From: a virus
Reading direction: 5' to 3' (one strand)
Length of the DNA: 64,000 nucleotides
IMG/VR virus record: IMGVR_UViG_3300045988_058602
Coordinates: 90,765 to 154,764 of that record
Under the pieces are notes generated by a model, which ran no database searches, was not told the DNA's origin, and saw nothing but the letters and a program-made list of their open reading frames with translations. How positions within the stretch are numbered: the first letter of the stretch is position 1; each line of letters opens with the position of its first letter. The position numbers and the translations under genes are program-made. Below are positions 4,879-64,000 of the stretch, in pieces.

Positions 4879-5347
4879 CTACGACATATTTTAAGATTTC
4901 ATAACTTTCTTCTAAGCCCGCCCTATCGTCTAGTAGAATATTGTAATAAGGCTTTCTAGAGTTCGGAAATAGTCTACTGCTTGTAAAAGGAGGTATAATC
5001 ATATCATTAATAAGATTTCCTATCCTCATTTGGACACACTCTACTTGTTTCTCTATAATTTTATTTTCGTTTTCCTCTGTAGAAAGTAAAATCATTTCAA
5101 AACCTAACATAGTACAACGTCTCAGTAGATTAATAACACAACTATAATCTCCTCCAGTATTATGATAGTCGAAGATAGTGTTATCAAAGTCGAAAGCGAC
5201 TATTAGCTTTCCGTATTTCTTATACTCTTCTAATAGTCGCTTCTTACAAGCCTCTTTTCCAAATGGATGGTTAAAACTTTCTATAAAGTCCTTCATTAAT
5301 TCGCTGTCTAATTTCTTTAAGAGTGTACTCCTTTTTAAGGACGCCAT
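4856..5347 (-). CDS. HAD-superfamily hydrolase-like protein (163 aa)
   Basis: Motif I FDFDNTI (DxDxT). Confidence 0.45.
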   Translation of the reverse strand: MASLKRSTLLKKLDSELMKDFIESFNHPFGKEACKKRLLEEYKKYGKLIVAFDFDNTIFDYHNTGGDYSCVINLLRRCTMLGFEMILLSTEENENKIIEKQVECVQMRIGNLINDMIIPPFTSSRLFPNSRKPYYNILLDDRAGLEESYEILKYVVDEIIKLN

Positions 5348-6833
5348 CTTCGAACACAGTCTCTAAACAGCCTCCACTTTCTACCTCAGGAGTTACTTGG
5401 TCTTCAGCATAGTAAACGCCATTAACGTCCTGATAGACAGCAATTAGACCTTTAAGAGAATTTTTAGTTCCATCATCTGTTTTAGGATGTTTGAATATTT
5501 CTTTCAATTCTCCATTAACTACACAAGCAGTAGCTTTGATTGCAAAGCCTAGACTATCTCTACTTGCATACTGATATGAGAATGAACCAACACCAAGAAC
5601 AAGATTACAAGCTGCCATGTGGGCATTCTCAAGTCTCATATAGATTTGCTTTTGACGTTCTAAAGTAATAGAATCTCCATACAATAAGCCTATCTTAGTG
5701 CTTGGATAACGGTAGTCCTTGGAAGTAGTATTCCAACCGAAGATCTTACCAAGCATATAGTATGCTCCGTAATATTGACCTTCTGATACTTCTACGTATT
5801 CTGCATCGTCATTAAACGGAGCATAACAGCAGTAGTATTTACCTTCCCTTATTCTTGTATTGAAATGAGGATTAGTTCTCAGACCACAAATAATATCTAC
5901 CGGGTCTCCACTATCGGGACGAATAACTACACGACCGTCACGAGCCATAATGTCTTTCTTCAACTTAGGAAGGAAGTTTTCAACAACATTCCAGAAATCC
6001 CAAGTATCAGACACTATGGAAACAAACCCAGTAGGATATAACTCATTAATGAGACGTTTATATGTTCCTAACTCGTCCTCTTCTCCTCCTGCACACATTA
6101 CCGAATGTTCAGTAGCCGGAACAGTAGCAGCAATCAATTCACTATCAGAATTAGCTCCATAATATTCTTCAAGAGCTGCAATAGCAGGAATAGTTTCACT
6201 TCCTACAAATGAAGTCATATGAGCCATACCAGAAATAACAGACGCTTCCAAACCAGCCATTCCTCTCATAGAGAAGTCATGACACAAGAAATCCAGGTTT
6301 ACATCCTCCGGAAATCCAGTATGTACTGAGTGTCTTTTGAGTTCTTTCTTATAGAGTCTTGCTCTAGTGGCAGAGGTACAAGGCATCCACAAAGTACAAC
6401 TAATCAAAGTCTCTAGATAATTAGTTAACCAAAAGAACTCTGGTTTCGTATTAGTAATAGTCATCATAGGAACTCTAATAGGACATACTGAACCTTCCGG
6501 CAACGCTTTAATACGAATAGGGAGATATCCTAAATCATACAAAGCCTCAATATGTCTATATCCCACGGACTCAATTCCAACGAAGTTGTGGACTCTCCGA
6601 TAAAACATTTCTATAGCTTTCTCTTTAGGCAATACAAAGAAATTCTTATTAAATTCGTCGATCAAATACTTTTTAATTAAATATTGGATTCCGAATACTA
6701 CAGAACCTTCGGTAGCTTCTGGAAAGTACTTGTTACTTCTCGGAGTCCAGTTACTATAAACTTGTTCAGTACCTTCTGGGTACATCCTGTGATGGCCTAA
6801 TTTGTAACCATCTGTTGCATTAATTATTTCCAT
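5271..6833 (-). CDS. nadV: nicotinamide phosphoribosyltransferase (NAMPT/NadV-like)
   Basis: 520 aa; N-terminus ATDGYKLGHHRMYPEGTEQVYS matches the conserved NAMPT N-terminus ATDSYK..H...YP. Confidence 0.8.
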   Translation of the reverse strand: MEIINATDGYKLGHHRMYPEGTEQVYSNWTPRSNKYFPEATEGSVVFGIQYLIKKYLIDEFNKNFFVLPKEKAIEMFYRRVHNFVGIESVGYRHIEALYDLGYLPIRIKALPEGSVCPIRVPMMTITNTKPEFFWLTNYLETLISCTLWMPCTSATRARLYKKELKRHSVHTGFPEDVNLDFLCHDFSMRGMAGLEASVISGMAHMTSFVGSETIPAIAALEEYYGANSDSELIAATVPATEHSVMCAGGEEDELGTYKRLINELYPTGFVSIVSDTWDFWNVVENFLPKLKKDIMARDGRVVIRPDSGDPVDIICGLRTNPHFNTRIREGKYYCCYAPFNDDAEYVEVSEGQYYGAYYMLGKIFGWNTTSKDYRYPSTKIGLLYGDSITLERQKQIYMRLENAHMAACNLVLGVGSFSYQYASRDSLGFAIKATACVVNGELKEIFKHPKTDDGTKNSLKGLIAVYQDVNGVYYAEDQVTPEVESGGCLETVFEDGVLKKEYTLKEIRQRINEGLYRKF

Positions 6834-20850: not shown

Positions 20851-20876
20851 ATCGGTTGAACTATAGCCCTGTCATG

Positions 20877-21438
20877 TGGACCTAACGGGAGTCGAACCCG
20901 TGTCCAAACAACCCTTATTACAAGGATAACGTGCGTCTCATTTTTATTACATCAGCTAGTGAGTTCTAGCATTTAGATAGTTTTATTAGAAGAGCTGGAT
21001 TCTTTACAGTAGAGGTGAACCAGCAGTCCTCCTACTAACTAATTTACAAACTACCAAACTGGGGGGCTGACTAGAAGTCATTCTTCCACCACTCCATTTA
21101 CGTTGGAGAACGTCTATTTGTAGCCCATAGATAGGCAGTGGAGATTTCAGCTCTACTAACCTTTGGCTTTCAAGTTAATGCATCTAAGCTTCACTGTAAC
21201 CTGTAGGTACTATGATTCTTCCCCGAAGGTCTCGTTATAACACTTAGATACAAACCTCTTCTGTTTCTAGGTCTCCCCATTAACCCGACTTGATTAATAT
21301 TGTCTATTAATAAGTCAGCAGCTTAGGCTGCCATTCTTACAGGTGCAATTTCTGCAGTTATTTGTTTTCTTCGTTTAAAGAGATTGCGCTCTACACGTCC
21401 TTATAATTCGTAATCGCCTGTCAAATCCAAGTAGGCCC
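20877..21438 (-). ncRNA. ssrA: tmRNA (ssrA)-like gene
   Basis: 5' end GGGCCTACTTGGATTTGACAGGCG resembles the tmRNA 5' tRNA-like domain. The 3' end GGACACGGGTTCGACTCCCGTTAGGTCCA resembles the tmRNA T-arm and acceptor. The 5' GGGCCTA pairs with the 3' TAGGTCC. An internal candidate tag frame reads GCAGAAATTGCACCTGTAAGAATGGCAGCCTAA, i.e. AEIAPVRMAA followed by a stop. Confidence 0.6.
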
Positions 21439-30144: not shown

Positions 30145-30463
30145 TTCACTACAATTTGTTCTTCAGATTTTAATTTAGCTGGAGCATCAAAATGTAACTT
30201 ACCACATCTTACACACCAACAAACTCCAAATGAATTTTCTCTCACTTTACATCTGCCTTTCTCACAGATTTTAACTACTTTTCTGTAATTCTCCTTATCC
30301 ATAATTATATAATTTAGAAATACAGCCTTACTACCCCTATGTTCCTAGTTATTCTTTAGCTAGCTTTAGATTATTACTAGGTAATACCGCAACGGATTTA
30401 TTCAGCTGACTTTACCGCCTCTTGGTATGCAAGGCTAGGTCTCCCTAGCGAAGCTGTATTTAG

Positions 30464-30535
30464 TTGGGCTACCAGGACTCGAACCTGGACTCTCAGAACC
30501 AAAATCTGATGTGACTACCATTACACCATAGCCCA
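30464..30535 (-). tRNA. tRNA-Gln(TTG)
   Basis: U1-A72 acceptor TGGGCTA/TAGCCCA, D-arm TGGTGTAATGGTAG, anticodon loop TTTTGGT. Confidence 0.65.
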
Positions 30536-47187: not shown

Positions 47188-48102
47188 ATGGACAAAAGTA
47201 AAATTACAAAACAAAATGGGAACATAGCTTTCGAGGAGGAGGCTCATATTTATTATGATGTTACAGAGCCTGAACAGAAATTTATATCTGTGACGACTTT
47301 AATACATTCTTTCACCCAACCCTTTGACAAAGAGTTCTGGTCAGCCTATAAAGCATTAGAGAAACTTCTGTCTAAAGAAGATTGGGCTATTGAGAAAAAG
47401 TCATTACTGAATACTAAGAAATTTGACAAAGTTCTACTTGAGCTTCATAACATTACAGAAGACGAGTTTAATAAGGAACAACAAGCTATCTTAGATGCGT
47501 GGGATTTAGAGAATAGGAACTCTTGCGAAAGAGGAACTAAGATTCATGCAGATTTAGAAAACTCTTTTTACAAAAAGAAGAAGAACATAGACCTTAGTAA
47601 ATATCAAATAGGTGGTAAGTTTGAGTGTGTAAAAGACCATAATGAATTAGATTTAGAGAATGGGGTATATCCTGAGTATTTAATATCTAGAGTATCGGAA
47701 GATGGAAAACTTAGAATAGCTGGACAAATCGACCTACTAGTTAAAAGAGGTAATAAGATAATTATAGGAGACTGGAAAACTAATAAGAAGATAGAAACCA
47801 AGAGTTTCTTTAATTCTAAAACCAAATCATCAGTTAAGATGAAATATCCTCTAAATAATTTAGATGATGTTAATTATTGGCATTATGCACTTCAATTAAG
47901 TACTTACGCCTGGATGATACAAAAAAAGAATCCGGAGTTTGAGATTGAAGATTTAGTATTAGTTCACTTTGATCATAGTGATAATATGACAGTATATCAT
48001 CTACCTTACCTAAAAGATGAAGTAATTAGAATGCTATTGTTTTATAAAAAAGAATCTGTACTAGCTGAAAACAAAAGAAAACGTCAACGTATTGAATATT
48101 AA
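47188..48102 (+). CDS. PD-(D/E)XK nuclease of the RecB/Cas4/YqaJ exonuclease family
   Basis: GQIDLLVKRG...IIGDWKTNKK (D...DWK) and QLSTYAWM (QxxxY) motifs. Confidence 0.6.
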   Translation: MDKSKITKQNGNIAFEEEAHIYYDVTEPEQKFISVTTLIHSFTQPFDKEFWSAYKALEKLLSKEDWAIEKKSLLNTKKFDKVLLELHNITEDEFNKEQQAILDAWDLENRNSCERGTKIHADLENSFYKKKKNIDLSKYQIGGKFECVKDHNELDLENGVYPEYLISRVSEDGKLRIAGQIDLLVKRGNKIIIGDWKTNKKIETKSFFNSKTKSSVKMKYPLNNLDDVNYWHYALQLSTYAWMIQKKNPEFEIEDLVLVHFDHSDNMTVYHLPYLKDEVIRMLLFYKKESVLAENKRKRQRIEY

Positions 48103-48104
48103 TT

Positions 48105-48320
48105 ATGACATTAGAAGAAATTGAAGAACGGTGGAAAATATGTAGACGATGTCCTATATGCGACCAAGATAATGGATTATGTAATGGAAATTTATATCTA
48201 AATCCAAAAAATAATGATATAAGTATAGGACCAAAAGAAGGTTATATAAAAGGATGCGGATGTCTACTAGAGAAGAAGATTCCAAACGAGAAAAAACATT
48301 GTCCTGCAGGGAAATGGTAA
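48105..48320 (+). CDS. Cys-rich zinc-finger protein (71 aa)
   Basis: CRRCPICDQDNGLCNG...CGC...HCP. Confidence 0.4.
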   Translation: MTLEEIEERWKICRRCPICDQDNGLCNGNLYLNPKNNDISIGPKEGYIKGCGCLLEKKIPNEKKHCPAGKW

Positions 48321-48637
48321 TGTACGGAACTCCCGTGCTGTATAGACCCGATAAGGCTTATGTACTTACTTATCAGGAAACAAAAGAAGAAAGTAGAGAA
48401 GATATGACAGAAAAATGGATTAAGGCAATATTTACTAAGCCTCTAACAATATTAAAGAGTATATATTTTAATATATTCGGAATAAATCAAGATTTAGCAA
48501 CCAAGAGATTAAAGATTTGTAATACTTGTCCTCACAAGTTATATACTTCTGTTGGAGAAGTATGTGAGGAATGTGGTTGTATATTAGAGAATAAAACTAG
48601 AATAGAAGATGAACATTGTGATTTATGTAAATGGTAA
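48254..48637 (+). CDS. Cys-rich zinc-finger protein (127 aa)
   Basis: CNTCPHK...CEECGC...HCDLC; overlaps the previous ORF in another frame. Confidence 0.4.
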   Translation: MRMSTREEDSKREKTLSCREMVMYGTPVLYRPDKAYVLTYQETKEESREDMTEKWIKAIFTKPLTILKSIYFNIFGINQDLATKRLKICNTCPHKLYTSVGEVCEECGCILENKTRIEDEHCDLCKW

Positions 48638-48645
48638 AATGAATT

Positions 48646-49371
48646 ATGGAAAATTTAAGAACAGAATTAAACAGTAACGAGAAACTAGCCTTATCTTTGA
48701 CCGGAATGGAAGGAACAGGAGAACACTTTATTTTAAATGGTGAAGCTGCAGATAAGACATTACTTAGAGAGAAACAAGAAAGATTTAATACAGCGGTAGA
48801 TGAAATAAAAGATAAATTCTCAAAACATAATAAAGCTTTAGAGGATTATGCTAATTCATTATCAGAAGATATGAATGGTGTAGAGATTATGCCTATGTAT
48901 GGGTATGCTCTTATCAAGCCGTTTGAACAGAACCCATTCCAAAAAATTAAGACTACTAAATCAGGATTAATTACAGACTTAGGAGGGTTTGCTCCAACAT
49001 ACAAGTCTAACGAGACTGGAGAAATTGAGGAAGAACAACAGTTTATCAAGGTAGGTACTGTAGTAGAGGTAGGCCACAAGTGTGAGTTCTTAAAGCCTGG
49101 TGATATTGTATTCTATACTATAGCTAGTGAATGTATGGTTCCATTTTACAAACTAGGATTCGTAGTAGTTAATGAGAATAGAATCATGGCTGTAGTTAAT
49201 GAGAAACTAACTGAAAGGAGAGACCAAATTAAGCAATCTCAAGACTGTATAAATGTAGATATAGATAAGATCCCAAAAGAGCTTGGAGATAGCTTACCTG
49301 AGAGAATAAAGAATTGGATGGAATACAAAAAGATAGGAATTAATTTACTTAGAGAGGATGGAAACAATTGA
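48646..49371 (+). CDS. hypothetical protein (241 aa)
   Basis: Intact standard-code ORF. Confidence 0.5.
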   Translation: MENLRTELNSNEKLALSLTGMEGTGEHFILNGEAADKTLLREKQERFNTAVDEIKDKFSKHNKALEDYANSLSEDMNGVEIMPMYGYALIKPFEQNPFQKIKTTKSGLITDLGGFAPTYKSNETGEIEEEQQFIKVGTVVEVGHKCEFLKPGDIVFYTIASECMVPFYKLGFVVVNENRIMAVVNEKLTERRDQIKQSQDCINVDIDKIPKELGDSLPERIKNWMEYKKIGINLLREDGNN

Positions 49372-49426
49372 TGAGAAAGTTTATTTCAAACCTGGGGATT
49401 GTGTTACTTTACGGTAGTGTAAGGTA

Positions 49427-49579
49427 ATGCATTCTCCAGTAATGCTTGTTCTGAGAAGGGAATCAGCATTATTTAAAGATAACCAGGGATTGCGCGGACT
49501 TAGATGTAGATGGTTTACTGATTCTGGACTGATGCAAGAAGCAGTATTTAATACAAAAGACTTAATTAAAGTAGAAGAA
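49427..49579 (+). CDS. small protein (50 aa)
   Basis: MHSPVMLVLRRESALF...; ends TAA 2 nt before the next ATG. Confidence 0.3.
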
Positions 49580-49581
49580 TA

Positions 49582-50796
49582 ATGGCGAAAATACAATTTG
49601 ATCCAGAGTTAATGTAGCATATCAAGACTATATATGGAGACGCAGAGTTAGACGGAAGAACTTTACAACAGTTGCATTAGACTTGGCAAAGTAATCCGAA
49701 CTCTATTAGAAATACTGCATAGTAGAAGAAAAGAAGTGCTGTGCCAGCTATACAACAAAAACCTATATTAGGATTAAAGCCGTCTACTCCTACTATTCCT
49801 AAGAAAATAAATGCACCTTAGCAACAAATTCAAAACGACGACTTAAGAGGAGTCTAGGGGTTTGGTACAGCATTTAGAGAAGCCAGAAAGAGAGGACTAA
49901 CTCAATTCAAATGGGGGAAAGGAGTGTATGGAACATAGTTAGCTAATGGAAAGAAAGCAACAGTAGAGGTAGGAACTCCAGTAATGAATAATCCCTATGT
50001 TACATATAGTCAAGACGGAAAAAGAGCTACTACGTACCAAAATCAAGTAGACTAGGAAACTGGAGAGCATACTGGAACTATCCAAGAACAATGGATAAAG
50101 CCGCCTACAACTAATATGTATGGGCAGAAACTAACTCCAGAATAGCTCAAAAATTAGAGAAGTTGGGAACATATACCAAAGGCAACTGCTAGATAGCAAC
50201 GAGTTAAATATCAACAAGGAGGAGCAATGGCTAATTAGGAAGAATTACAAAAAGCATTTATGGCATACTTAATACAGGATGCCGCAGCACAAGGAATACA
50301 ATTACAATCTGAGTAGGATTTAGAACAATATGCTCAGCAATTAGGAGAAGACGGAATTAAAGCCAAATACCAGGAATTTATGCAAAAAATGCAAGGTGGA
50401 GTTATGGCTAGATTAGGAGCTAAGCTTGAGTACTATAAAAAATTAAAAGGAGTTTGCCCAGAAGGGGAAGAACTTGTTTATTTTAAACAAGGAGGTAGAA
50501 TTTGTAAAGCCTGCCAGAAAGCTTAGAAAGGTGCTAAGGTAAAAGGTAACGAGGTAGACAAATTTAAGAAAGGAAGAGCACAGTATAAGAAAGATATGAA
50601 ATCAGCGAAAGATGAAGCTTCCAGAGATTCTATATCTATTAATAAATATAATGATTAGGAAACCATGTCTAATAAAGGACATAAAGGAAACTTCCAAAAG
50701 GGAAAATGGGTTCCTGATAGAAAGCAATATACTAAAAAGGATGCTTGTGGCTCTAAAATGAAAGTAAGCAAGTGTGGCTCTAAAATGAAGAAGTAA
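49582..50796 (+). CDS. late protein (404 aa), TAG-recoded, Gln-rich
   Basis: Single frame from ATG 49582 to TAA 50794 with about 20 in-frame TAGs and no TAA or TGA. Confidence 0.55.
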
Positions 50797-50829
50797 GAAA
50801 AGATTGTCGAATGTTAATGATTAATGATT

Positions 50830-51390
50830 ATGAATGTATTTAACTATAACACTTTAACTAAATAGTTAGAAATAAATGAACCAGAGATTCTTCTAGTTAA
50901 AGAGTTTAAAGCTTTACTGCAAAGAGATAAATCTGTGGAAAAGGATAGAGCAATTAGAGAACTATCATACATTTATTTAGCTATTGATTGGAAGAGTCCG
51001 TATAGCTAGTACTCTGAATATGAAAGGCACGATGAAGCAATTAATGATTCTGGATTAACAGAATCAGAATTTAATGATCCGATATTTAGGGAAGCATGTA
51101 GAAAATATAGAGCATTATAGGACTCAAATAAATCAATTAAATTATTAGAAGCTGCTAGAAGAGCTGCTGACTAGTTTATTGATTACTTCGATACTATTGT
51201 AGACTTAAATGAACGTGACACTAATGGAAAGCCAGTATTCTCTGCTGAGAAAGTAATGAAGGAAATGGCTAGCCTTCATAAAGTTCACGAAGAATTAATT
51301 ACATTAGAAGATGAGGTTAAAAAAGAACTTACTGAATAGTCTACCGTTAGAGGAGGGGCTACAGATGGTTTTGATCCTGGAGAATTTTAA
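50830..51390 (+). CDS. putative small terminase / DNA-packaging accessory protein (186 aa), TAG-recoded
   Basis: Frame ATG 50830 to TAA 51388 with 6 in-frame TAGs; the call rests on its position directly upstream of TerL. Confidence 0.4.
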
Positions 51391-51392
51391 TT

Positions 51393-53753
51393 ATGCCAAG
51401 AAAGAAAAAGATATTACCTGATGAACTATAGACTATAGTAGATTAGGTAAGAGAAAAAGAACATAAAGAAGATGCTGTAGAGGCAAGAGAGCTAGTATAG
51501 AAAATAAGAGAAGAAAGGGTCAAAAGTGCAGACTATTGGGATGTCAAGAAAGGAGACAAGATAGATGTTTTTGACCCTACTTTGTCTTATGAGATAACTG
51601 GCTATAGACCTATTGATGAAACGCATGGTTTGGACTTTAATCCCGAATGGTTCACCGAAACCAGAGAAGTATACAGAAAGACTGGGAAGTATTGTCCCTA
51701 CTTAAAAGACAGTAAGAGATACAATGAATTTTGGAAAGAGTAGTACAGAAGATGTAAATATGGAATGACAGTTAATGGTTATACTATTACTGGAGATAAC
51801 TATTTCTTCTTAAATTTCTATTAGCTTCCTATTATTGATGATAATAAAGCATCCGGTGAAGGAACTAATAGTGACTTCCCTATATTCTTTGCATCCCATT
51901 ACATGTTCTTCCATTACTTACAAATGGCTAGAGTACTACATAGACATGCAGCTTTAATGAAGGCTCGTTCAATCGGATTCTCAGAAATAAATGCCTCACT
52001 ATCCGCTCGTATGTATTCTGTAATTAGAAGAAGTAGAGTAATGATTACTTGCTTTAATGATACCTTCCTTAAAGGTACATTTAGTAAGTTTGATAATGCT
52101 CTAACATTTTTAAATACTTGCACAGGTGGAGGATTCTTTAAGCTTCGTCTAATTGACCAGGATTTAAGAAAGAAGTCTGGTAAGTAGGTTAAAGTAAACG
52201 GATAGTTTGAAGATGTTGGATTTAAATCAGAAGTAGTAGGAATAAATGGAGCTAAACCATCTAATATTCGTGGAGACCGTGTTGACTTATTAATATATGA
52301 CGAAGCAGGGTCTTGGCCAGGATTAGATACTGCTGTGGTACAAGGACAAGAACTTTGTGAAGTCTAGGGTAAGCCTCGTGGAACAATGTTGTTTGGAGGT
52401 ACTGGTGGTGATATGGGTGCTCCATTAGCAGGTCTTAAAAAGATTTACTATAATCCAAAAGCTTACAAAGTTCTTCCCTTTAGACATAATTATACTCAAG
52501 ATGGGACTACTATTGAGAGTGGATTCTTTATTCCATATTTTGTACAGTCTTTGAACTCCGAATACATGGATCATAGAGGCGTATGTAATACCGTAGAATA
52601 TAAGAAGTATCTGTAGGAAGAAAGAGATAATCTATTAGCAGTACCCGATGACTATTTAAAGAAGTGTGCTGAACGTTGTTGGAATGCAGAAGAAGCCTTC
52701 AATCTAGAAGGTGTTAACAAGTTTAACAAAATTCTTATTTCTGATCAATTAGCTAATATAAGACTAAAGAAAATAGGTCCCAGACCAGAATGTGGTTATA
52801 TAGATTACTTCTATAAAAATAATAAACACACTGCTGATAACATTGATGGATTTAAGTGGATTCCTAATACTAAGGGAAAGGTAAAGATTCTGGAACATCC
52901 AGTATGGTCTGACCTATATAAGGAGTAGATGGATAAACTTAGATAGGAAGCAGAGGAAAGAGGAGAGGAATTTGAAGCACCTGTATATAAAGAAATGCAT
53001 AATCTTTATATTGCAGGAATAGACGGTATTGATATAGGAGCTAATTAGACCTCGAAGGAAACTAAAGATCCTTCTGACTTCTGTATAACTATTAAGAGAA
53101 GGGCATTTGGTATGAGTGAGCCATAGTATGTAGCAATGTATAAGGACAGACCTGGAGACATTCGAGAGGCTTACAAAATAGCTATGTGTTTACTTAGATA
53201 CTACAACTGTAAGGTAAATATAGAAGCAACTCGTGTTGGTATGATTACCTGGGCTAGAGAAAAGAAATGTTTGAATTACTTTATGAAACGTCCTAGAGCT
53301 ACTCTTACTGATGTTAAAAATGGAACTACTAAATAGTATGGAACTCCAGCTACTAAAACTATTATAGAACAACACACTGATCTAACTGCTGCGTTTGTGG
53401 AAGATTATTGTCATACTATATGGTTTGAAGAAATGTTGGAATAGCTTACTGGATATAATGACGAGAATAAAGGTAAGTTCGATATTATAGCAGCTATGGG
53501 TATGACAGAATTAGCAGATGAAGAGTTGTCTGGAAGATAGCCTATAGTTGTGGAAAAAGAAGTTGAATTGTTCAGGGATTTTGGTTATTATTACGATGAG
53601 AGAGGAATAAAAAGATTTGGAGTTATACCAACTAGCGAAACTCCAGAATTAAATATGCAAGACGATGAATACGATGACCCATACAGAATTGAAACAAGTG
53701 ATCCTAGAGTATATGAGAGACTTATACCAAATGGAATATATAGGCGGACTTGA
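51393..53753 (+). CDS. terL: terminase large subunit (TerL), TAG-recoded
   Basis: Frame from ATG 51393 to TGA 53751 joins the ORF-track fragments 51903, 52386, 53136 and 53550. It contains an ATPase Walker B motif DLLIYDEAGSW and a nuclease motif IAGIDGIDIG, with about 17 in-frame TAGs. Confidence 0.75.
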
Positions 53754-54009
53754 GATTGAGGATTTGAATCCAGTTGGTTACAAAATATCTTTTAACTTTG
53801 ACAGGTCTGAGATGCCATTAGTAATCATAGCTGATTTACCCGATGATGAATTTCTGCCTTTTATTAAAGAAGAATTAAGAAGTAGGAAGTTATAGAGAGT
53901 TAAGTATTATAACGCCACTAAGCTTCCTCCAGAACAACATAATACATGTTATGAAAGAGAAAGAATTGATAGACAAAACAAACGAGGCTATTGCGGAACT
54001 TGTGTATGA
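53665..54009 (+). CDS. possible small overlapping ORF (114 aa) with 1 TAG
   Basis: Alternative frame overlapping the TerL 3' end and the portal 5' end; uncertain. Confidence 0.2.
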
Positions 54010-56125
54010 TAAATATGAGCTTTAGAAAGCTTATAATTATTATAATGGTAAAAGAGATCCAGAATAGTTTCGCTATCTTGAAGAGAATTTTGGAATAGGC
54101 AGTCCTACATCAGTAGAATTTACACCACTACTTAAGAAGCATGTAGATGCTTTAGTAGGGGAATATCTAGGAACTCCAATACTCCCGAAAGTCTCTTGCA
54201 AAGATTCAGATACTATCAGTAATATAACCAGAGAAAAATAGCTAGAGATAACTAAAGGAATAGTTAAGTTTTTAAAAGATCACTTAAGTAATGCTATCTT
54301 AAGCTTTATTGACGGAAAAGATATTACTGATAAAGCTGTAAAGACTCAGCTAGATAAGGTTATATAGGATATTGATTAGTCATTCATTTCTCAGTATGAA
54401 ATTGCTGCGCAGAACATTATTCACTACCTAATGCAATCTAGGGAAACTGATCTTATTACTAAGTTGCGGTAGTTATTAACTGACTTACTAATTACTGGAT
54501 ACACATTCTTTAGAGTAAAGTCTTCTTTCTCCGGAACTAATGTGGAGATAGAGGTTCTTAACCCATTAAATACGTTTGTTGATAGAAATCCAGAATCTCC
54601 ATATGTCAAGAAATCATATAGAGTTGTTATTAGAAAATGGATGAGTAAAAGCCAAATACTAGCTAAGTATGGTAAAGAAATATCTAGGGAAGACTTAAAG
54701 AGGTTAAAAGATGAATGGAGAGCAGATGATTCTGCTGCCGTATACAGAAGAGTTTATGGAGATGTTTGTACAGTGGTTAATGAAGATCAAAATCATGAAA
54801 CCATTCCTGGGTATCCAGATAATGAATATAGTGCTCATAGATTTTAGTTAATTCCGGTCTACGATGTAGAGTGGATAGAGACTGATGATGATTTCAAAAT
54901 GCAGAGATACAATACTATAAGGATAGGAGAGGAAATCTATATTCTTAGAGGATTAGACAAGACTGCAATGAGGTCTAAAGACGATCCTAACTCTTGTTCA
55001 TTATCAGTAAATGGAGTTTATTTTCTAAATCGTTCTCAGTAGCCATATTCTTTAATACTTAAGTGTGCACATCTACAGGATAGATATGACTTACTTAACT
55101 ATTACAGAGACAACTTGATAGCTAATAGTGGAACCTCAGGAGTTATTATGGATATGTCATTACTTCCTACTAACTTAGGAGTACATTGGCCAGAAAGAGT
55201 ATAGAAATGGCTAGCTTATAAAAAAGCTGGTATTCAGTGGGTTGATACTACTTAGGAGGGTAGAAATGACAATGGAAACGCTCCTTTAAATACTATCTTT
55301 AATGGATTTGATGACACCCTTAAAGCGTAGGCTGTATAGGCTATTGAGTTAGCTATTCAATCAGTAGAATAGACTACATCATCTATAACTGGAGTATTTA
55401 GGGAAAGACTTAATGGAATAGAGACTCATGATGCTGTAACTAATATTAAGCAAGGAGTCGCTAACTCTTATATAGTAACTAAACACTATTTCCAACAAAT
55501 GGACTTGATAACTTGTGAAATATTATTAGATAGTCTTAATTAGGCTAAAGTAACTTACAAGAAAGGGTTAACTGGAACTATTATATTGGGAGATAAGTAT
55601 TAGTAGATATTTACTGCCCTTCCTGAATATTTCACAATGACTGATTTTGACATTCATATAACCTCCAGCACTGAAGTTATGGAAGATTTATAGACTATTA
55701 AAGCTATGATTCCGGAGTTCCTTAAGAGTTAGCAAATGGATGCTGGTATAGTTTTTGAAGCATTAACAGCTAAGAGTTTGACAGACTTAAAGTACAAGGT
55801 TAAAAAAGCTATGCAGGTTTAGAAAGAAGAGAACAATCAATTACAATAGTTGTAGTAGAAGTTGGAAGAAACTTCATAGCAAGCACAACAACTACAATAG
55901 GAATTGGAGAAAGCTTAGTAGAAAATAGAAAGGCTAGACGAACAAAAACTTGGACTAGAACAGTAGAAGATGCAACTAGAGTATAAGGTTAATTGGCTTA
56001 AAGCTCAGTCTGATTCTACTTACAAAGATAGACAAATGGATATTGAAGAGAAGAGAACTGAAATAGAGTTAGCATAGCTTCATGACGGAAATCCATATAA
56101 CGATAAAGTAAGACAAATACATTAA
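53951..56125 (+). CDS. portal protein (724 aa), TAG-recoded
   Basis: Frame ATG 53951 to TAA 56123 includes the fragment 54542-54847. N-terminal AYNYYNGKRDPEQF resembles the portal YYxGxQ motif. The C-terminal coiled coil becomes Gln-rich when TAG is read as Q. Confidence 0.6.
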
Positions 56126-56126
56126 T

Positions 56127-56996
56127 ATGGCTACAGCAGGTACAATAGTATATAATAAAGATTAGCAACAAATATATCCCATTTCTCATGCAGAGGTGGT
56201 AATTAGTAATGCTTCTGGAAGTAAGTCAGATGTAGAAGACAACCTTGTAAAATTATGGAAAAAGGTCTCAGAACTAAGTGGGGACTCGGAAGCAGCTAGT
56301 AATATCATGGTAGTAGTTACTTATTGTAAAACAAATACCAAAGATGAATCCGAAGTAAAAAAGTTGTCAACATGGAGTGATATTTTTGAACTACCAGACT
56401 CAGAAAGACCGTATGTTTGGAAGAAAACTCTATACACGTATAAAGGAGACACTGCTAAACTTAATGAGATTTACGAAATTGTTGCTACAGATATTGCTGA
56501 GAAAATTCAGAATATCTATATTGCAAGATCAACTGGGGTTGCACCAGTTATTACTTATCCAATACTAAAGGATGGATATGGAGATCCTATATTAGACTCT
56601 GAAGGAAATACTTAGGAAGATTTGACTGCCTTTGACAATAAATTACCAGAAGGCTGGTCAGAAACTCCAGTTAGTATTGGTCCAGCTACTCCATATGTAT
56701 TTATATCAACACGTAAGAGAGTAGAAGGATTATGGAAAAGATATTCTGAACCAGCTCAATACGGTAGGTGGGCATTTGACAGTTAGTTAGAGTTACGATA
56801 TACCATTACTTCTGGAGATAAACCAGCTGTTAATACTACAAGTGACGATCCTGGAAGTTAGTGGTCTAGCGATACTCCAGATAATTTTACTGGAAAAATG
56901 TGGATGATTACTGCAACATCAGTAAACGGAGTATTGAATAGTGATGAAAATAACGTTAGATGGCACGGTCCTCATTTGATGTCAATTATACAATAA
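56127..56996 (+). CDS. structural protein (289 aa), TAG-recoded
   Basis: Frame includes the fragment 56196-56615 and has 4 in-frame TAGs; TAA stop overlaps the next ATG (TAATGG). Confidence 0.5.
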
Positions 56997-57727
56997 TGGA
57001 ATTTAGTATTGATATACATACCCAGATTACTGGGGAAATAACTATTGAAGACTTCTCTAAAGAATATGGATAGTATATTGATGAAGATTTAGAAGTAGTA
57101 ACTTCTTACGACTCTTATAAGTATAGTGAGAGTGCTACTCTAAATACTATCATCAAGGTAAGTATAGGGGATGCCACACTAATAGATGTCCTTTTAAATG
57201 ACCATACAGAAGATTTAGATTCATGTACATTTAAAGTAAAAGAGGATGGATATTATGTGGTAGATCATATAATACTTCCTAATATGAAGTGGTATGAAAA
57301 TTCATCTGATGAATATAAGGAATACTACGAAACTATCTATGTTACAGATGGGGAGAAACTATATAAAGAAGTAGAAGGAGAGTTAGAAGAGTGTACGGTA
57401 AAGGAAATTCTAGAAAGAAACATAGAAGGCACTACTATCAAGAAGTGTAAGGTAGATGTATTCTTTACAGGGAATTTGCAATAGTGCTATATTAATTATT
57501 GTAAAAAATTATTTGACGGACTCCTAAATAAATGTGTTACCAATGAACATGAGGCAGATATTTTTGCCAGAGATTTTATTTGGATGACTCTCAACATTAT
57601 AGATTATTTAATAGGCTTTAAACAATTCATGGAAGCTGAAAGATTGCTAGCAATGTTCCGCACTTGTGGAGGATTCTGCAATACTCGCCATCATGGACAT
57701 AAACATATAAGTTGTGGATGCTCTTAA
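56996..57727 (+). CDS. hypothetical late protein (243 aa), TAG-recoded, Cys/His-rich C-terminus
   Basis: Frame includes the fragment 57257-57484; ends CGGFCNTRHHGHKHISCGCS then TAA. Confidence 0.5.
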
Positions 57728-57882
57728 AAGAAAGGCTATTAAAAGGTATGAAGAGTTTCTTGGAAGAATTAAGAAAGGATATAGACCAGATTATCAAGAT
57801 ATTTTGAATTTAATCTGTTTTATTAATCTACCTGTAAAACTAGATAATCACGAATTTATTAAATAGCAACTATTAAATCATA

Positions 57883-59469
57883 ATGATACAGCCTATTTAC
57901 ACTTCGGTAAGCAATGCTGACATAAAGCCTTGTGGAAAGAAAGGACATTTAATAAAAAGTGAGCCTATACCACTTCTGAGAGATAATTACTTAGGAGAAT
58001 ATAGAACAGAACTAGAAAGAGCTAAGGTTAGAAAAAACTTAGGAATTGCTGATGAGTAGAGTCTTCTTTGGGGAAACATTAGTGGAACTATAGAGGCCTA
58101 GAAAGACTTAGTTTAGTATATTGAACAAAAATGGACATATACTAGCGATGTTGCAGAGAATATTAACACTGTAAAAGATGCATTAGACTATGCATTGTTT
58201 TTTATTAGTTAGTATGAGGCTAATACTGAGGAAATAGAAGAGATAAAGGTTGATATAAGTAATATTAGGACTAGCATTTAGGTATTAGGAGAAGATCTAA
58301 AAAGAGAGATTGATACTAATAGGGAAGGACTAAATAACTTGTCTTAGGATATAGTTGAAATTAATTAGGCAATATCTAATATCAATGCTGCTATAGAAAA
58401 TATAGACGTTGATAAGAACATTCTTAATTGGATTAAAAACAATCTTTAGAACTCTAAGACTGTAGAGATAAAGGAAGATAATACTATAGAAGTTATTCTT
58501 TCTAAGCAGGATGATAATGCTATTCATTTAATTGAATAGGAATTACCTCCTGCAGAAGAAGGGGAACCTTCTACTATAACTCTTCCAGGAATCTATGTAA
58601 AGAATCTAGAACCTTAGTTAGAAGAAGCTTAGAAATCTATAGAAGAAGTATAGAAAGCTTAGGAAGAGACTAATGAAAAAGTTAGTACTAATAGTGAGAG
58701 TATTACAAATATTTAGACTAGTCTAGAAACTATAGCTACCTATTAGACAGAACTTCCGGATGATACAACTTCTACTGTTATAGAAGGTACTACTGTTGAA
58801 AAATTAAAAGGAAAACCATTTAATGAAATCATAGATACTTTACTATTCCCAACAGTAGTCAGAGATTTAATATATCCATAGTTGTATTATAGCTTTACTT
58901 CCCAAATTGTGGAAGTAGGAACCGCATTACTAAACCCAACCTTAACTTTCGTAAAAAATGATGCAGGAGAAGAAACTGACAGAGAAGAAGTTATTACTTA
59001 TAACGGTTCTCCTATAGAGTCTGCTACATATGATTCTATTGGAGTTTATACTCATTCTGGTACAGTAAACTATGCTGCTGGAGAATACCTAGTAAACAAT
59101 AAGGGAGAAATCACGGATAAGAGGGTAGAAGCTGGTTCTATATCAGCAACTGCACAAGTAACAGCTACTTATCCTTGGTATTCCGGAAATACTGATGGGC
59201 TAATAAAATAGTCTTTAGTTCCATTTAATTAGGCTTCTGGCACTATTACATTTTCGTTAAGCGGTAGGGCTATTATAAAACTACCAGGAAGTAATACTCA
59301 GCTAAATTCCTTCACAGTAGATGGAGGATTGGGATATTTGAATGTCGATCTGAATGGTTGGGAAGCTTCTACTGAACAAATAAATGGATTCCCATATAAA
59401 GTATGGACTAAGAAGGATACCTACTCTTCAGCACTACCTCACCAAATTAACTTTATTCTATCACAATAA
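57883..59469 (+). CDS. tail/structural protein with coiled coil (528 aa), TAG-recoded
   Basis: Frame includes the fragment 58882-59211 and about 20 in-frame TAGs; TAA overlaps the next ATG. Confidence 0.5.
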
Positions 59470-61337
59470 TGGCATTTAAATATACAGGTGATGCTACCCT
59501 AGGTGTTGGTTTAACCGTAGAAACTCCGAAGCCTCTGGATAATAGAACAGTAGTTGATAACCTAGAGGAGCTATATTCTATTCCAGAGAAATATGCTTAT
59601 TAGGGCATGACCGTATCTAATATAGATAACGGAAATATTTATATGCTTATTGATAAGTCTAAGATTAAATATAAAGAAGGATGGAAAGCGTCTTATGAAT
59701 CTATTCAGATAATAGCTTGTACAGAAGCTGAATATAAAGAATGGTCTGCTAATACTACAGAAGATTTTAAACCAATAGATGAGAATAAAACATATCTTCA
59801 CGCTGAAACATATTATTATATATATGAGGACAGCCTAGACGATAATTAGTTTTACCTATCAGCAGAATGGGGTAAGAAAATAGAAGAGTAGTTAAAGCAG
59901 AAAGCTCTTAATACTACAGTTGTATAGATTAGAAATGATTTAGACTAGACTATTTAGAATCTTTCTAAGTATGCAACATTAGAAGAATTAACTGCTAATT
60001 ATGCTCCTAAGGCGGACCTAGATTTGGAAGATCCAGAATCCCTTTTATCTAAAGCTCTGTCTAACCACTATACTAAACAGGAAACAGATGATATATTTGT
60101 TACTAAGGAAAGTCTTAGAGGGGAAGGAATAGAAGGAGATGATTTCGTCTTTGTTACTAAAAAGCAATATGACGAAGATTAGTAGGCTATCTAGAGCGAA
60201 TTAGATAAGACTTTAAAAGTAGATGGAGATGGTTCTCTGGAAAGTATTACTGTGGGACAGATAAAATCTCCAGTGATTGAAGGAGAGGATTAGCTAGTAG
60301 TAGATGTTAAATCAGACGGATTGTTTGTTGGAGAAGATCAATTTGCTATGATGTCTGATGTCCCAAATTTAGTTACATTAACTGAAGAGGAATATTTAAA
60401 ACTGGTAGAAGATGGTACTCTAGAACCTGACACATACTATTATGTGTATGACGTGACAAATGACGCTAAAGTCTATATTACTAAAGAGTATCTAGATTAG
60501 AATTACCATACTACTCATTAGTATTAGTCATGGGTAGCTACCAACTACTACTCAAAATCTCAGATTGATGAGATAGTTGCTGGTTTACAGAAACTTGGGA
60601 GCTACGTTACTACAGAAGATATTAAAGCATATTACACTAGTCAATAGGTAGATGAAAAGTTTCTTACAAAAGAGAATGCTCAATCTACATACGCTACCTA
60701 GTAGTCATTAACGGAGCTGTCTGGATAGATAGCAGAAGAGTATGTAACAAAGGATAGTTTGAGAGGAGATTCTCCCGAGACTGGTGATGATGACTTTATA
60801 TTTGTTACTTAGAATAAATATCAATAGGATTAGACTGCTGCTTCCCAAGAATTTAATACTAAGCTATTAAAATCAGAATAGATAGAAACTTCTGACATTA
60901 CTATTTAGAAAATTGTAGAAAAAGAAGTACAATAGGGAACAACTGAAGAAAGTCCAGGAGATATAGTAATAGAGCAAACTATTGAAAGCTCTATTAATCT
61001 TACTACTGAAGATAATAGGTTATTAGCATCAGGTAAACAAGTTGCTCTTATTGAAGAAGTTCCAAAATTAGTATGTTTACCCTAGACTGATTATGATAAC
61101 CTAGTTGAAAATAATAAGACAGAGAACGATACTTATTACTGTACTTACGGAGAAAAAGATATATAGGATACAGGATATGTTAGAAGCGAATATCTTACTG
61201 AAAAGTACTATACTAAAGCAGAGGTAGAAGCTTTGATACAGGAAGCTGTAAGCGAATTATAGAAAAAGATAGATGCAATATAGCCTGGTTCGGGCAGTGC
61301 ATCAGTAGATGAATCAAATGAACAATTAATATTTTAA
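59469..61337 (+). CDS. tail fibre/structural protein (622 aa), TAG-recoded
   Basis: Frame includes the fragment 59607-59849 and about 35 in-frame TAGs; TAA at 61335. Confidence 0.5.
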
Positions 61338-61342
61338 ACAAG

Positions 61343-61552
61343 ATGGGAACAATTTATATTGACGGACAGTTTAAAAGCTCTGCTAAGCCTGTAAAAGTTG
61401 TTAGTGGTAGTGTAGGAGGGTCTGGAGTAGATCCTGATACTCTCAAGAACTATGCTACTAAAGCAGAACTTCAGAAAGCTGTTGAGGACTTAACTGCTTC
61501 CATAGAAGGAATAGATCATGATGTAGTTGAAGAAACTTTAATAATATAGTAA
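61343..61552 (+). CDS. small late protein (69 aa)
   Basis: The ORF-track fragment ends at TAG; the real stop is the TAA immediately after it. Confidence 0.4.
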
Positions 61553-61553
61553 T

Positions 61554-63374
61554 ATGGCAGCTATCAAATCTATAAAGGTAGGAGAAATTACATACGACTT
61601 AAAGGCTACTTATGATGGTTCTGGCAACAATATTGCCGAGACCTATGCTAAATCTAGTGCTATTCCGACTAAAGTATCATAGTTAAGTAATGATAAAAAC
61701 TACCTAACAGAACATTAGGACATTAGTGGTTTAGCAACTAAAGAATAGATAGACGAAAAAGTAGACAAGGAATTAGGAAAAGGTCTTTCCGAAGCTAATT
61801 ATACTGAATTAGAAAAATAGAAGCTTTAGGGTGTAGAAGATGGTGCAAATAATTATGAACACCCAACTACAGCCGGATACAAACATATTCCCTCTGGAGG
61901 AGCAGCAGGATAGATTTTAACTTATTCTAATGATGGTACTGCTCAATGGGCAGATTCTAGCACTAAGTTAGATTAGCAATTCTAGGCACTTAATGAGGCT
62001 TGGGAAGAACTTCAGAAAGCTTAGCAAAATTTAGATAGTTAGGTAACAGCTATGACTAGTAACGCAGATCTTTACTCCTATGGAGTAGAATGGGATATAA
62101 CTGTATCTTCTCCGGTTCTCACCAGAATTGGAAACCCGTTACTGCATAAATCACTTCCTATTCAGTCTGCTTATAGGGGATGCGTAGCCAATGGAGCTAA
62201 TATAAACTATTTCTTACATCCAGATAATTGGGCTTATAAGGAAGACGGTACTACTCCCTCTGTGCTTGATGGTAGTGAAGGAACTGTTAGGGTTAACACT
62301 CCTAAGTTCTATGGTAAGTCTGGTTCCAATGGAAATAAAAGATGGGTAAGAGAATCAACTGTTAAGATAGACGACTCTTGGGTTGAAATACCGGAATTGT
62401 TAATTGATGCATATAGAAGCACAGTTGATACTACAGTATCTGCAACTCCAAAGGCTGTATCAGTAGTTAATACTACTACAGCATTTAGAGGAGGTGGAAA
62501 TAGAGCATAGTTCGACGAGTACTTGACTACTGAGCTGGAGACTAAAGATATTTTCAGAAGCGACTTAGGAAAACCAAGAACGAATATTTCCAGAGCCACA
62601 ATGAGAACTTATGCTACAAACGCAGGTTCTGAATTACTATGTTACGAATATTACAAGTGGATATTCTACTGGAATTATGTAATAGAATATGCTAACTTTA
62701 ACTCTTAGGCTACATATGAGGCAGAGCTTACTGCTGATGGCTATCATTAGGGAGGTCTTGGGCCCGGAGTTACGGATTGGAGTAATTCTGACACAAGTTG
62801 GTCTGGATATAACGGAACTTATCCTCTTACTCCATGCGGTCACTGTAACGATATTGGTAATTTCACAGGAGTTAAAGATTTAGTTATCCCAGGATGCACT
62901 GCAACAGATGGAACTAGTACAGTGGCTACTCATACTTTTAAAGTACCTCGTTGGAGAGGCTTTGATAATCCATTTGGAGACATTTGGACAAACCTAGATG
63001 GAGTAGTTATTCAAAGAACTGCAGCGAATGAAATAAGTAGTGTATATACTACCACAGATAAAGCGGAGTTTACTGACGTAATTGGCAACAAGACTATAGC
63101 CGGATACGAGGTAGCACAAGATGGATACATTAAAGAGTTTGATTTAGGAGAGACAGCGGAGATTATACCATCTTCTTGTACTGGAGCTTCAATTACTACT
63201 TATATGTGTGACTACCACTATTGTAACGCTAGCTCTACAGCGCTTCGCACGCTGCGGGTGGGCGGCGGCGCGAATTATGGCGGCGGGGCGGGTCTCGGCT
63301 CTTTCGATTCTAGCAATGGCGTCGGCGGTGCCTTTTCCTATGTCGGGTTCAGGACTCTAAATAGAGTATCTTAA
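61554..63374 (+). CDS. tail fibre protein with a C-terminal FGE/C-type-lectin-like variable domain (606 aa), TAG-recoded; primary DGR target
   Basis: One frame joins the fragments 62052, 62523 and 62922. The tail-fibre motif SGGAAG(Q)ILTYSNDGTAQW is present, with the Q encoded by TAG. The C-terminus ...RTLRVGGGANYGGGAGLGSFDSSNGVGGAFSYVGFR is encoded by VR1. Confidence 0.65.
63242..63349 (+). repeat. DGR variable repeat 1 (VR1)
   Basis: GC-rich island ctgcgggtgggcggcggcgcgaattatggcggcggggcgggtctcggctctttcgattctagcaatggcgtcggcggtgccttttcctatgtcgggtt aligns to the TR; nearly every mismatch is at a TR adenine. Confidence 0.8.
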
Positions 63375-63444
63375 GATATAAAAATATAAAAAATCAGTTT
63401 AGATAATAAACTGTAGGATATTACTTCTAAAAACCGTTGATTGG

Positions 63445-63552
63445 CAAAAAAGAACTGCTAGTAGGCAGCAACGCGAATAATGGCAGCAATGCAGGTCTCA
63501 GCTATTTCAATTCTAACAATGACGTCAGCAATGCCAATTCCAATGTCGAGTT
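63445..63552 (+). repeat. DGR template repeat (TR)
   Basis: ctgctagtaggcagcaacgcgaataatggcagcaatgcaggtctcagctatttcaattctaacaatgacgtcagcaatgccaattccaatgtcgagtt is rich in AAT, AAC and AGC codons in the VR reading frame, and no TR codon can mutate to a stop by A-to-N change. Confidence 0.8.
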
Positions 63553-63749
63553 ATTATATATTTAGAAACAATTTTAATTTTTACCTTATTTAGTTTGCTA
63601 AGTAATATCCTTGCCTCTAGGCAAAAAATAACGTAGTGTTGAATGAAGGGTGTTAGTAGGTTATCTCGAACGCTTCCGATGAAATATATAAAAAATTGAA
63701 ACGTGTAGGACATTTGCACGAAAGGGTGTATGATTTATGGAACATCGAA

Positions 63750-64000
63750 ATGGCTGATGATAGAGCCAGAAAAAATAAATCTGTTCGATGTGGAATTAAG
63801 CAACATGATAAAAATAGATTAAAAGAAAATAAGGAATTATCCCACAAACTAAGGGACCTAATTTATCAGACGTCTGAATATAGTACTTTCATAATATATG
63901 AACCTAAGGGAAGATTAATCTTTAGACTTCCATACTATCCTGATAGAATAACTCATCATGCGATAATGAATATTATGGAGCCTATATGGACTAAAATATT
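63750..64000 (+). CDS. DGR reverse transcriptase, 5' partial (continues beyond the window)
   Basis: MADDRARKNKSVRCGIKQHDKNRL...GRLIFRLPYYPDRITHHAIMNIMEPIW has the RT domain-1 pattern P..DR..HHA....EP, and it starts about 200 bp downstream of the TR. Confidence 0.65.
   Translation, partial: MADDRARKNKSVRCGIKQHDKNRLKENKELSHKLRDLIYQTSEYSTFIIYEPKGRLIFRLPYYPDRITHHAIMNIMEPIWTKI

Follow-up and report, generated by a model that had tools for sequence, protein, structure and literature searches.

The prototype DGR is that of the Bordetella phage BPP-1, with its components Mtd, TR, Brt, and Avd. Late-gene stop-codon recoding in gut phages (code 15) was reportedly described by Ivanova in 2014 and by Borges in 2022. 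TAG-to-Gln recoding of late genes has been reported in crAss-like phages, including those of the Zeta group (PMC7886860), and mass-spectrometry support for it is summarized in a review (PMC10136315). In the gut phages described by Yutin in 2021 (PMC7886860), the reading of TAG as Gln is limited to the late structural genes, the phages supply a suppressor tRNA of their own, and the standard code still holds in the early genes. Babkin et al. in 2025 described Zeta crAss-like phages in which a CTA suppressor and amber suppression occur together with a DGR (PMC12386605); the examples ctHMy13, ctoVY1, cthgQ11, and 3717_85572 are 176 to 189 kb long, with 23 to 27 tRNAs and ~35% GC (Table 1 of that paper). 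In that description, the Zeta cassettes consist of a tail-fiber target with a C-terminal VR and an RT of ~414 aa with amber codons, no Avd is present, the targets carry a C-type lectin domain, and the amber codons in seven RT genes hamper detection of the DGRs. A further described case is cr7_1 (Burzaovirus coli, Suoliviridae; NC_055895.1), which has a homologous tail protein gene (64% nucleotide identity) with 14 in-frame TAG codons, a VR/TR pair of ~100 nt in which 28 of 28 mismatches are at A, a downstream RT with 3 in-frame TAG codons, and a tRNA(CUA) annotated as tRNA-Gln. Recoding, DGRs, and the two together are already documented in crAss-like gut phages.

In this study, we investigated the window, by which we mean the whole 64,000-nt stretch of viral DNA that was analyzed, and in particular the DGR cassette that lies at its 3′ end (Table 1). 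A single explanation very probably accounts for this locus as a whole: a retroelement hypermutates the tip of a phage tail-fiber gene that is read, like the other genes in its recoded late block, with TAG as Gln. The recoding does not differ in kind from that known in gut phages; TAG is likewise read as Gln in late structural genes only, with a suppressor tRNA of the phage's own and early genes in the standard code, and the window adds a further case in which the recoded block includes the DGR target. The window belongs to a large crAss-like gut phage whose features best fit the Zeta group, an assignment made from shared features rather than from phylogeny: it has 27 tRNAs, ~35% GC, and the same cassette layout, and its relatives have an RT ORF of 406 aa and contigs of 180 to 196 kb. 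The best annotated matches of its TerL are Crassvirales terminases, at only ~26% identity, and a megablast search of positions 44000 to 64000 against a phage collection gave no match. cr7_1 differs from it in having a 104-kb genome, in belonging to a different crAss-like family, and in its target, which is 705 aa long with another N terminus and is served by a TR in which two AAA codons could yield stops. Like BPP-1, the locus has a VR at the 3′ end of a tail-fiber gene, a nearby TR, adenine-specific mutagenesis, an AAY-rich template barred from stops, and an asymmetric 3′ boundary (IMH versus IMH*). BPP-1 uses the standard code and has Avd and a GC-rich IMH with a downstream hairpin, whereas the window has no Avd and no convincing conserved hairpin, and its cassette lies inside a TAG-recoded late block.

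Table 1. Coordinates of features in the window, counted from its first nucleotide
Feature	Position	Strand	Details
Early ORFs (50, minus strand)	1-44000	-	0 in-frame TAG in 9615 codons; TAG is the terminal stop in 4 of 50
tmRNA-like gene	20874-21438	-	Rfam RF00023 match, 69 bits, E=7e-25, above gathering score
tRNA-Gln(UUG)	30463-30535		closest paralogue of the suppressor tRNA
tRNA with anticodon UUA	41439-41509	-	Rfam tRNA model, 57 bits
RAGATH-14 RNA, full length	41536-41742	-	RF03145, 157 bits
Suppressor tRNA, anticodon CUA	44696-44768	+	ARAGORN; Rfam tRNA model, 66 bits
Plus-strand genes before the recoded block	44710-49371	+	0 in-frame TAG in 993 codons; include exonuclease and GroES-like genes
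Exonuclease gene	47188-48102	+	TAG-free
GroES-like gene	48646-49371	+	TAG-free
Recoded late-gene block (nine genes)	49582-63374	+	128 in-frame TAG in 4402 codons (2.9%)
First gene of recoded block	49582-50796	+	404 aa; 15 TAG and 35 CAA/CAG
Terminase	51393-53753	+	16 TAG; within recoded late block
Portal	53951-56125	+	28 TAG; within recoded late block
Upstream neighbor of target	59469-61337		27 in-frame TAG
DGR target, tail (fiber) protein	61554-63374	+	606 aa; 13 TAG read as Gln in 606 codons (2.15%, below late-block average); TAA end
Stretch with all 13 in-frame TAG of target	61680-62750	+	first TAG at 61680, last at 62748-62750
VR	63252-63349	+	starts in codon 567 of 606; 32 full codons and two bases of the next
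TR, non-coding, adenine-rich	63455-63552	+	30 A
Spacer between TR and RT, non-coding	63553-63749	+	0 ORFs; position agrees with relatives
DGR reverse transcriptase gene, 5′ part	63750-64000	+	83 codons to window end, 0 TAG visible

The target is one continuous gene that is read through TAG as Gln and carries the VR at its 3′ end. ORF analysis places its ATG at 61554 and its TAA at 63372 to 63374, with 606 sense codons between them, exactly the boundaries given in an earlier note on this DNA. That note also put the number of in-frame TAG codons at about 25; we counted 13, at codons 43, 55, 65, 89, 92, 120, 141, 144, 157, 163, 319, 385, and 399, and the higher figure may come from the 27 TAG codons of the upstream neighbor. 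The continuity of the gene is supported by homology. The PHROG 5302 "tail protein" profile matches residues 147 to 602 (E=5e-79), with five TAG codons inside the match. More than 6800 database proteins match the target, and the best 120 of these are full length at 606 aa and ~85% identical; such full-length homologues are carried by contigs of 180 to 196 kb. From IMG/VR we took 80 related loci, among which 43 homologous genes are complete and free of in-frame TAG. Where they align with window codons 120, 385, and 399, these standard-code homologues have Gln in 43/43, 43/43, and 42/43 cases, respectively, against a Gln background of 2.7%. In an alignment of 15 co-linear relatives, TAG occurs in 20 columns. 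It interchanges with CAA or CAG in 10 of these, and in the remaining columns it is mostly GAG or GAA that stands in place of TAG; GAG and TAG are one base apart.

A gene that ends at its first TAG (codon 43), with the VR in a separate downstream ORF, was the alternative that the earlier note had set against its own reading. Translation by table 11 does split the frame into 14 pieces, as this alternative would have it, but the frame contains no internal TAA or TGA over all 606 codons, while such codons number 55 and 17 in the two remaining frames, and the chance of so long a frame free of both is P ~8e-17. The single profile match runs across five TAG codons, the standard-code homologues are unbroken over residues 27 to 606 and have Gln at the conserved TAG sites, the phage encodes a suppressor tRNA, and the terminase and portal genes show the same pattern of TAG codons. 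Frame and homology continue past the first TAG, and an early end is effectively refuted; we regard its probability as negligible. Reading TAG as Gln throughout the target, we find that its last 207 codons contain no TAG, and this absence from the C-terminal third is due to the scarcity of Gln residues there (two Gln codons in total, both CAA). A depletion of TAG in this part that appears at the raw rate (P=0.001) is gone once Gln content is controlled, and a comparison of TAG with CAA/CAG between the N- and C-terminal parts is not significant (Fisher P=0.11).

The product of the target would have a receptor-binding role. A Pfam domain search with the target and four diverse homologues gave no match, and a sequence profile search of the PDB with the target returned nothing meaningful. 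An AlphaFold2 model built from a shallow alignment of 18 sequences has a mean pLDDT of 29 and is uninformative on a C-type lectin fold.

Across the window, the early genes use the standard code and the late structural genes read TAG as Gln. Since the genes between 44710 and 49371 are free of TAG, the recoded block starts at 49582 and not at the strand switch. The exonuclease and GroES-like genes, both TAG-free, lie 3′ of the suppressor tRNA. The first gene of the block encodes a very Gln-rich protein with a Lys/Cys-rich C terminus and no PHROG match. The suppressor tRNA(CUA) opens the plus-strand block. Of the 27 tRNAs that the phage encodes, tRNA-Gln(UUG) resembles it most, with an alignment score of 28, whereas eight others score no higher than 14. 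The suppressor is predicted to be Gln-like and to serve the late block. Some other RNA genes of the early region deserve mention in their own right. Genes in the window end mainly in TAA, yet a tRNA with the ochre-type anticodon UUA is present, and a full-length RAGATH-14 RNA lies directly beside it. A tmRNA-like gene is found within the tRNA-rich early region of this stop-codon-recoding phage; the match spans 565 nt, compared with 374 nt for the model, and ARAGORN made no call there.

The VR and TR are a genuine DGR pair. They form a 98-nt direct repeat with 76% identity, and 22 of the 24 mismatches fall at TR adenines, of which there are 30 (hypergeometric P=3e-13); the other two fall at TR thymines. 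The VR ends 25 nt upstream of the TAA stop and so makes up the 3′ end of the target gene. At the 3′ edge of the repeat, the TR reads GTCGAGTT (63548 to 63552) and the VR reads GTCGGGTT (63345 to 63349), with one A/G difference that is fixed in all loci of the recoded group. It is an asymmetry of the IMH*/IMH type, by which retrohoming is given its direction. In a search for a hairpin or IMH-like structure downstream of the VR, a 5-bp stem (ACTCT-AAAT-AGAGT) turned up at 63357 to 63370. It occurs in the close group, lies inside coding sequence, and is not kept in more distant relatives, and we do not claim it as a functional element.

The stop codon and the TR are separated by 80 nt and the TR and the RT gene by 197 nt, gaps that leave no room for an Avd gene, and none is present at the cassette in the window. 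The genes that flank the RT in one relative (L002) are likewise without an Avd-like annotation. Avd is not universal, and according to the Zeta description it is absent from most crAss-like DGRs (PMC12386605). The 197-nt spacer would presumably belong to the DGR RNA. The RT gene runs off the end of the window, and its identity can be followed through relatives. The N terminus in the window (MADDRARKNK...YPDRITHHAIMN) is one residue off that of the RTs of L004 and L006, two loci with target proteins 95 to 96% identical to that of the window. The first 138 aa of the L004 RT match Pfam RVT_1 with E=7.6e-6 and 26.2 bits, just below the gathering cut-off of 29.6 bits, and the L002 RT has a precomputed match to PF00078. 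Both GNYLSQ and YADD are present in the RTs of relatives with 95 to 96% identical targets; the RT in the window ends before both.

The variation among relatives argues that this DGR is active in the lineage of the window. The protein cluster of the window at 90% identity or more has 429 distinct member sequences. When 15 sequences at this identity (14 cluster members and the window) were compared, 21 of the 33 residues encoded by the VR varied, compared with 64 of the 573 residues outside it, and the VR was different in every one of the 15. A VR/TR pair with mismatches mostly at adenine sites was found in 77 of the 78 loci analyzed (77 fetched loci and the window). The repeat reaches 90 nt in 72 loci. 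A DGR-type RT with GNYLSQ lies downstream in 69 of these, one of the 69 having the variant GNYLLQ, and the remaining three are misses of the motif search. The earlier note's proposal that the gene is diversified by the DGR is borne out both by this hypervariability of the VR and by the 22 of 24 mismatches at TR adenines. It could be supposed that the element is an inactive relic and that the difference between VR and TR reflects old divergence, given the two mismatches at sites other than adenine, the missing Avd gene, and an RT of which the window shows only part. We consider this very unlikely, since each of the 14 cluster members has a VR of its own in a protein that is otherwise nearly constant, the cluster holds its hundreds of distinct sequences, the TR is nearly identical across relatives with 81 to 96% identical proteins, and the RT ORFs of close relatives are full length (335 to 407 codons). 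The substitutions at TR adenines are skewed to G, which accounts for 17 of the 22 in the window; over the 72 related loci there are 1035 changes to G, 319 to T, and 238 to C. The positions at which AGC becomes GGC (Ser to Gly) are almost fixed. This skew suggests either that glycine is selected for at positions of the scaffold or that the errors of the RT are biased.

Our model of the locus is as follows. The early genes use the standard code, and the late structural genes are translated with TAG as Gln, by means of the phage's own suppressor tRNA(CUA), which is predicted to be Gln-derived. The target is one of these late genes, encoding a tail or putative receptor-binding protein, and the last ~100 nt of its coding sequence are the variable repeat. 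Transcription of the adjacent non-coding TR would give an RNA that the downstream RT reverse-transcribes with misincorporation at adenines, and the resulting cDNA would then replace the VR, which is how we take retrohoming to proceed here. The TAG codons elsewhere in the target would have arisen by ordinary CAA/CAG-to-TAG and GAG-to-TAG changes after the lineage gained suppression.

The earlier note held that VR and TR contain no TAG and that A-to-N mutagenesis of the TR cannot create TAA, TGA, or TAG, and both statements agree with our results. TAG is absent from the reading frame of both repeats; in other registers, it is present twice in the TR (63459 to 63464) and once in the VR. In the register of the VR, the mutable codons of the TR are eight AAT, two AAC, and four AGC, together with TAT, GAC, GAG, CTA, GTA, and GCA. 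Enumeration of all A-to-N outcomes of the 32 TR codons yielded no TAA, TAG, or TGA and no Gln; some 1e16 peptide variants can be reached from the TR, and Gln is never among them. Because neither Gln nor a stop is reachable, every reachable VR codon has the same meaning in codes 11 and 15. Recoding and the DGR are independent, orthogonal layers, and AAY diversification never touches the reassigned codon.

The same note went further and described the TR codons as chosen, which would make the TAG-free repeats a specific co-adaptation of the retroelement to the recoded code. The inability of the TR in the window to yield any of the three stop codons would fit this idea, as would the VRs of the 72 related loci, none of which has an in-frame stop or TAG. 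These properties are, however, at the level of chance and of generic DGR design. About 0.7 TAG codons would be expected in the 33 codons touched by the VR, and the probability of finding none is ~0.49; with the codon usage of this gene, 32 codons would lack AAA, AAG, and AGA with P ~0.085, and the stop-proof TR is a weak signal of adaptation. That AAY codons cannot mutate to stops is textbook knowledge on DGR templates. The 39 standard-code relatives have this AAY/AGC design too, a TAG arising in the VR would do no harm where TAG is Gln, and stop-capable codons do occur in the TRs of relatives (AAA twice in cr7_1, AAG in L063, and AGA in L079). We see very little chance that such co-adaptation has taken place and prefer to regard the stop-proof template as a general feature of these elements. 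Some standard-code TRs seemed to have "TAG TAG" in frame at their 5′ edge, but this proved to be an artifact of an ungapped alignment that was extended too far.

The occurrence of the cassette among relatives bears on two other claims, namely, that the combination of a DGR with a recoded target is unusual and that it constrains the order of evolutionary events. The VR/TR pair measures 90 nt or more in 72 related loci. Of these, 33 have a TAG-recoded target with 5 to 14 in-frame TAG codons, and the other 39 keep to the standard code. With nearly half of the loci recoded, an annotated example in cr7_1, and the published Zeta phages, the combination is not unusual. Nor is the constraint on order a strong one, because the cassette is also present in standard-code relatives and the TAG counts vary. 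The standard-code relatives that share the cassette and a nearly identical TR design have proteins 61 to 69% identical, and among recoded relatives with 81 to 96% identical proteins the number of TAG codons ranges from 5 to 13, with frequent interchange of TAG, CAA, and CAG. The simplest reading of these sequences would be that the DGR and its target are older than the recoding, or that their movement is not tied to it, with TAG codons gathering in the target as they would in any other late gene. Since the two systems are orthogonal, their combination says little about order and offers little information beyond the accumulation of TAG in a pre-existing cassette. The core of the earlier note, a recoded DGR target, thus stands, without its TAG count, its claim of unusualness, the special adaptation, or a strong constraint on order.

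The RT genes of relatives are themselves recoded. The full RTs of close relatives contain 3 to 7 in-frame TAG codons, and the codon for the invariant Gln in GNYLSQ is either TAG or CAA/CAG, with TAG in about half of the recoded loci. TAG at the Gln of GxxxSQ is internal evidence that TAG is Gln. The loci with TAG at this position are L003, L004, L006 to L012, L018, L022, L029, and L070 (e.g., the L004 RT at 5197 to 6417 of its own sequence). The relatives' RTs contain TAG, and therefore RT synthesis would require the suppressor tRNA. Retrohoming may thus be limited to the late phase of infection, when the suppressor would be expressed. A more speculative idea, which we think is rather doubtful, is that the whole DGR cassette depends on the suppressor and that the code switch acts as a timing or safety switch gating retrohoming to late infection. 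The published Zeta description notes the RT amber codons and is not known to test such gating (PMC12386605).

The recoding of target and RT also has a practical consequence. DGR finders and gene callers that use table 11 split both genes in such phages, and because both are broken in this way, DGRs in recoded phages are under-counted; the same point about annotation and under-counting is made in the Zeta description (PMC12386605). In the RefSeq record of cr7_1, the tail protein and the RT are each annotated as a single CDS.
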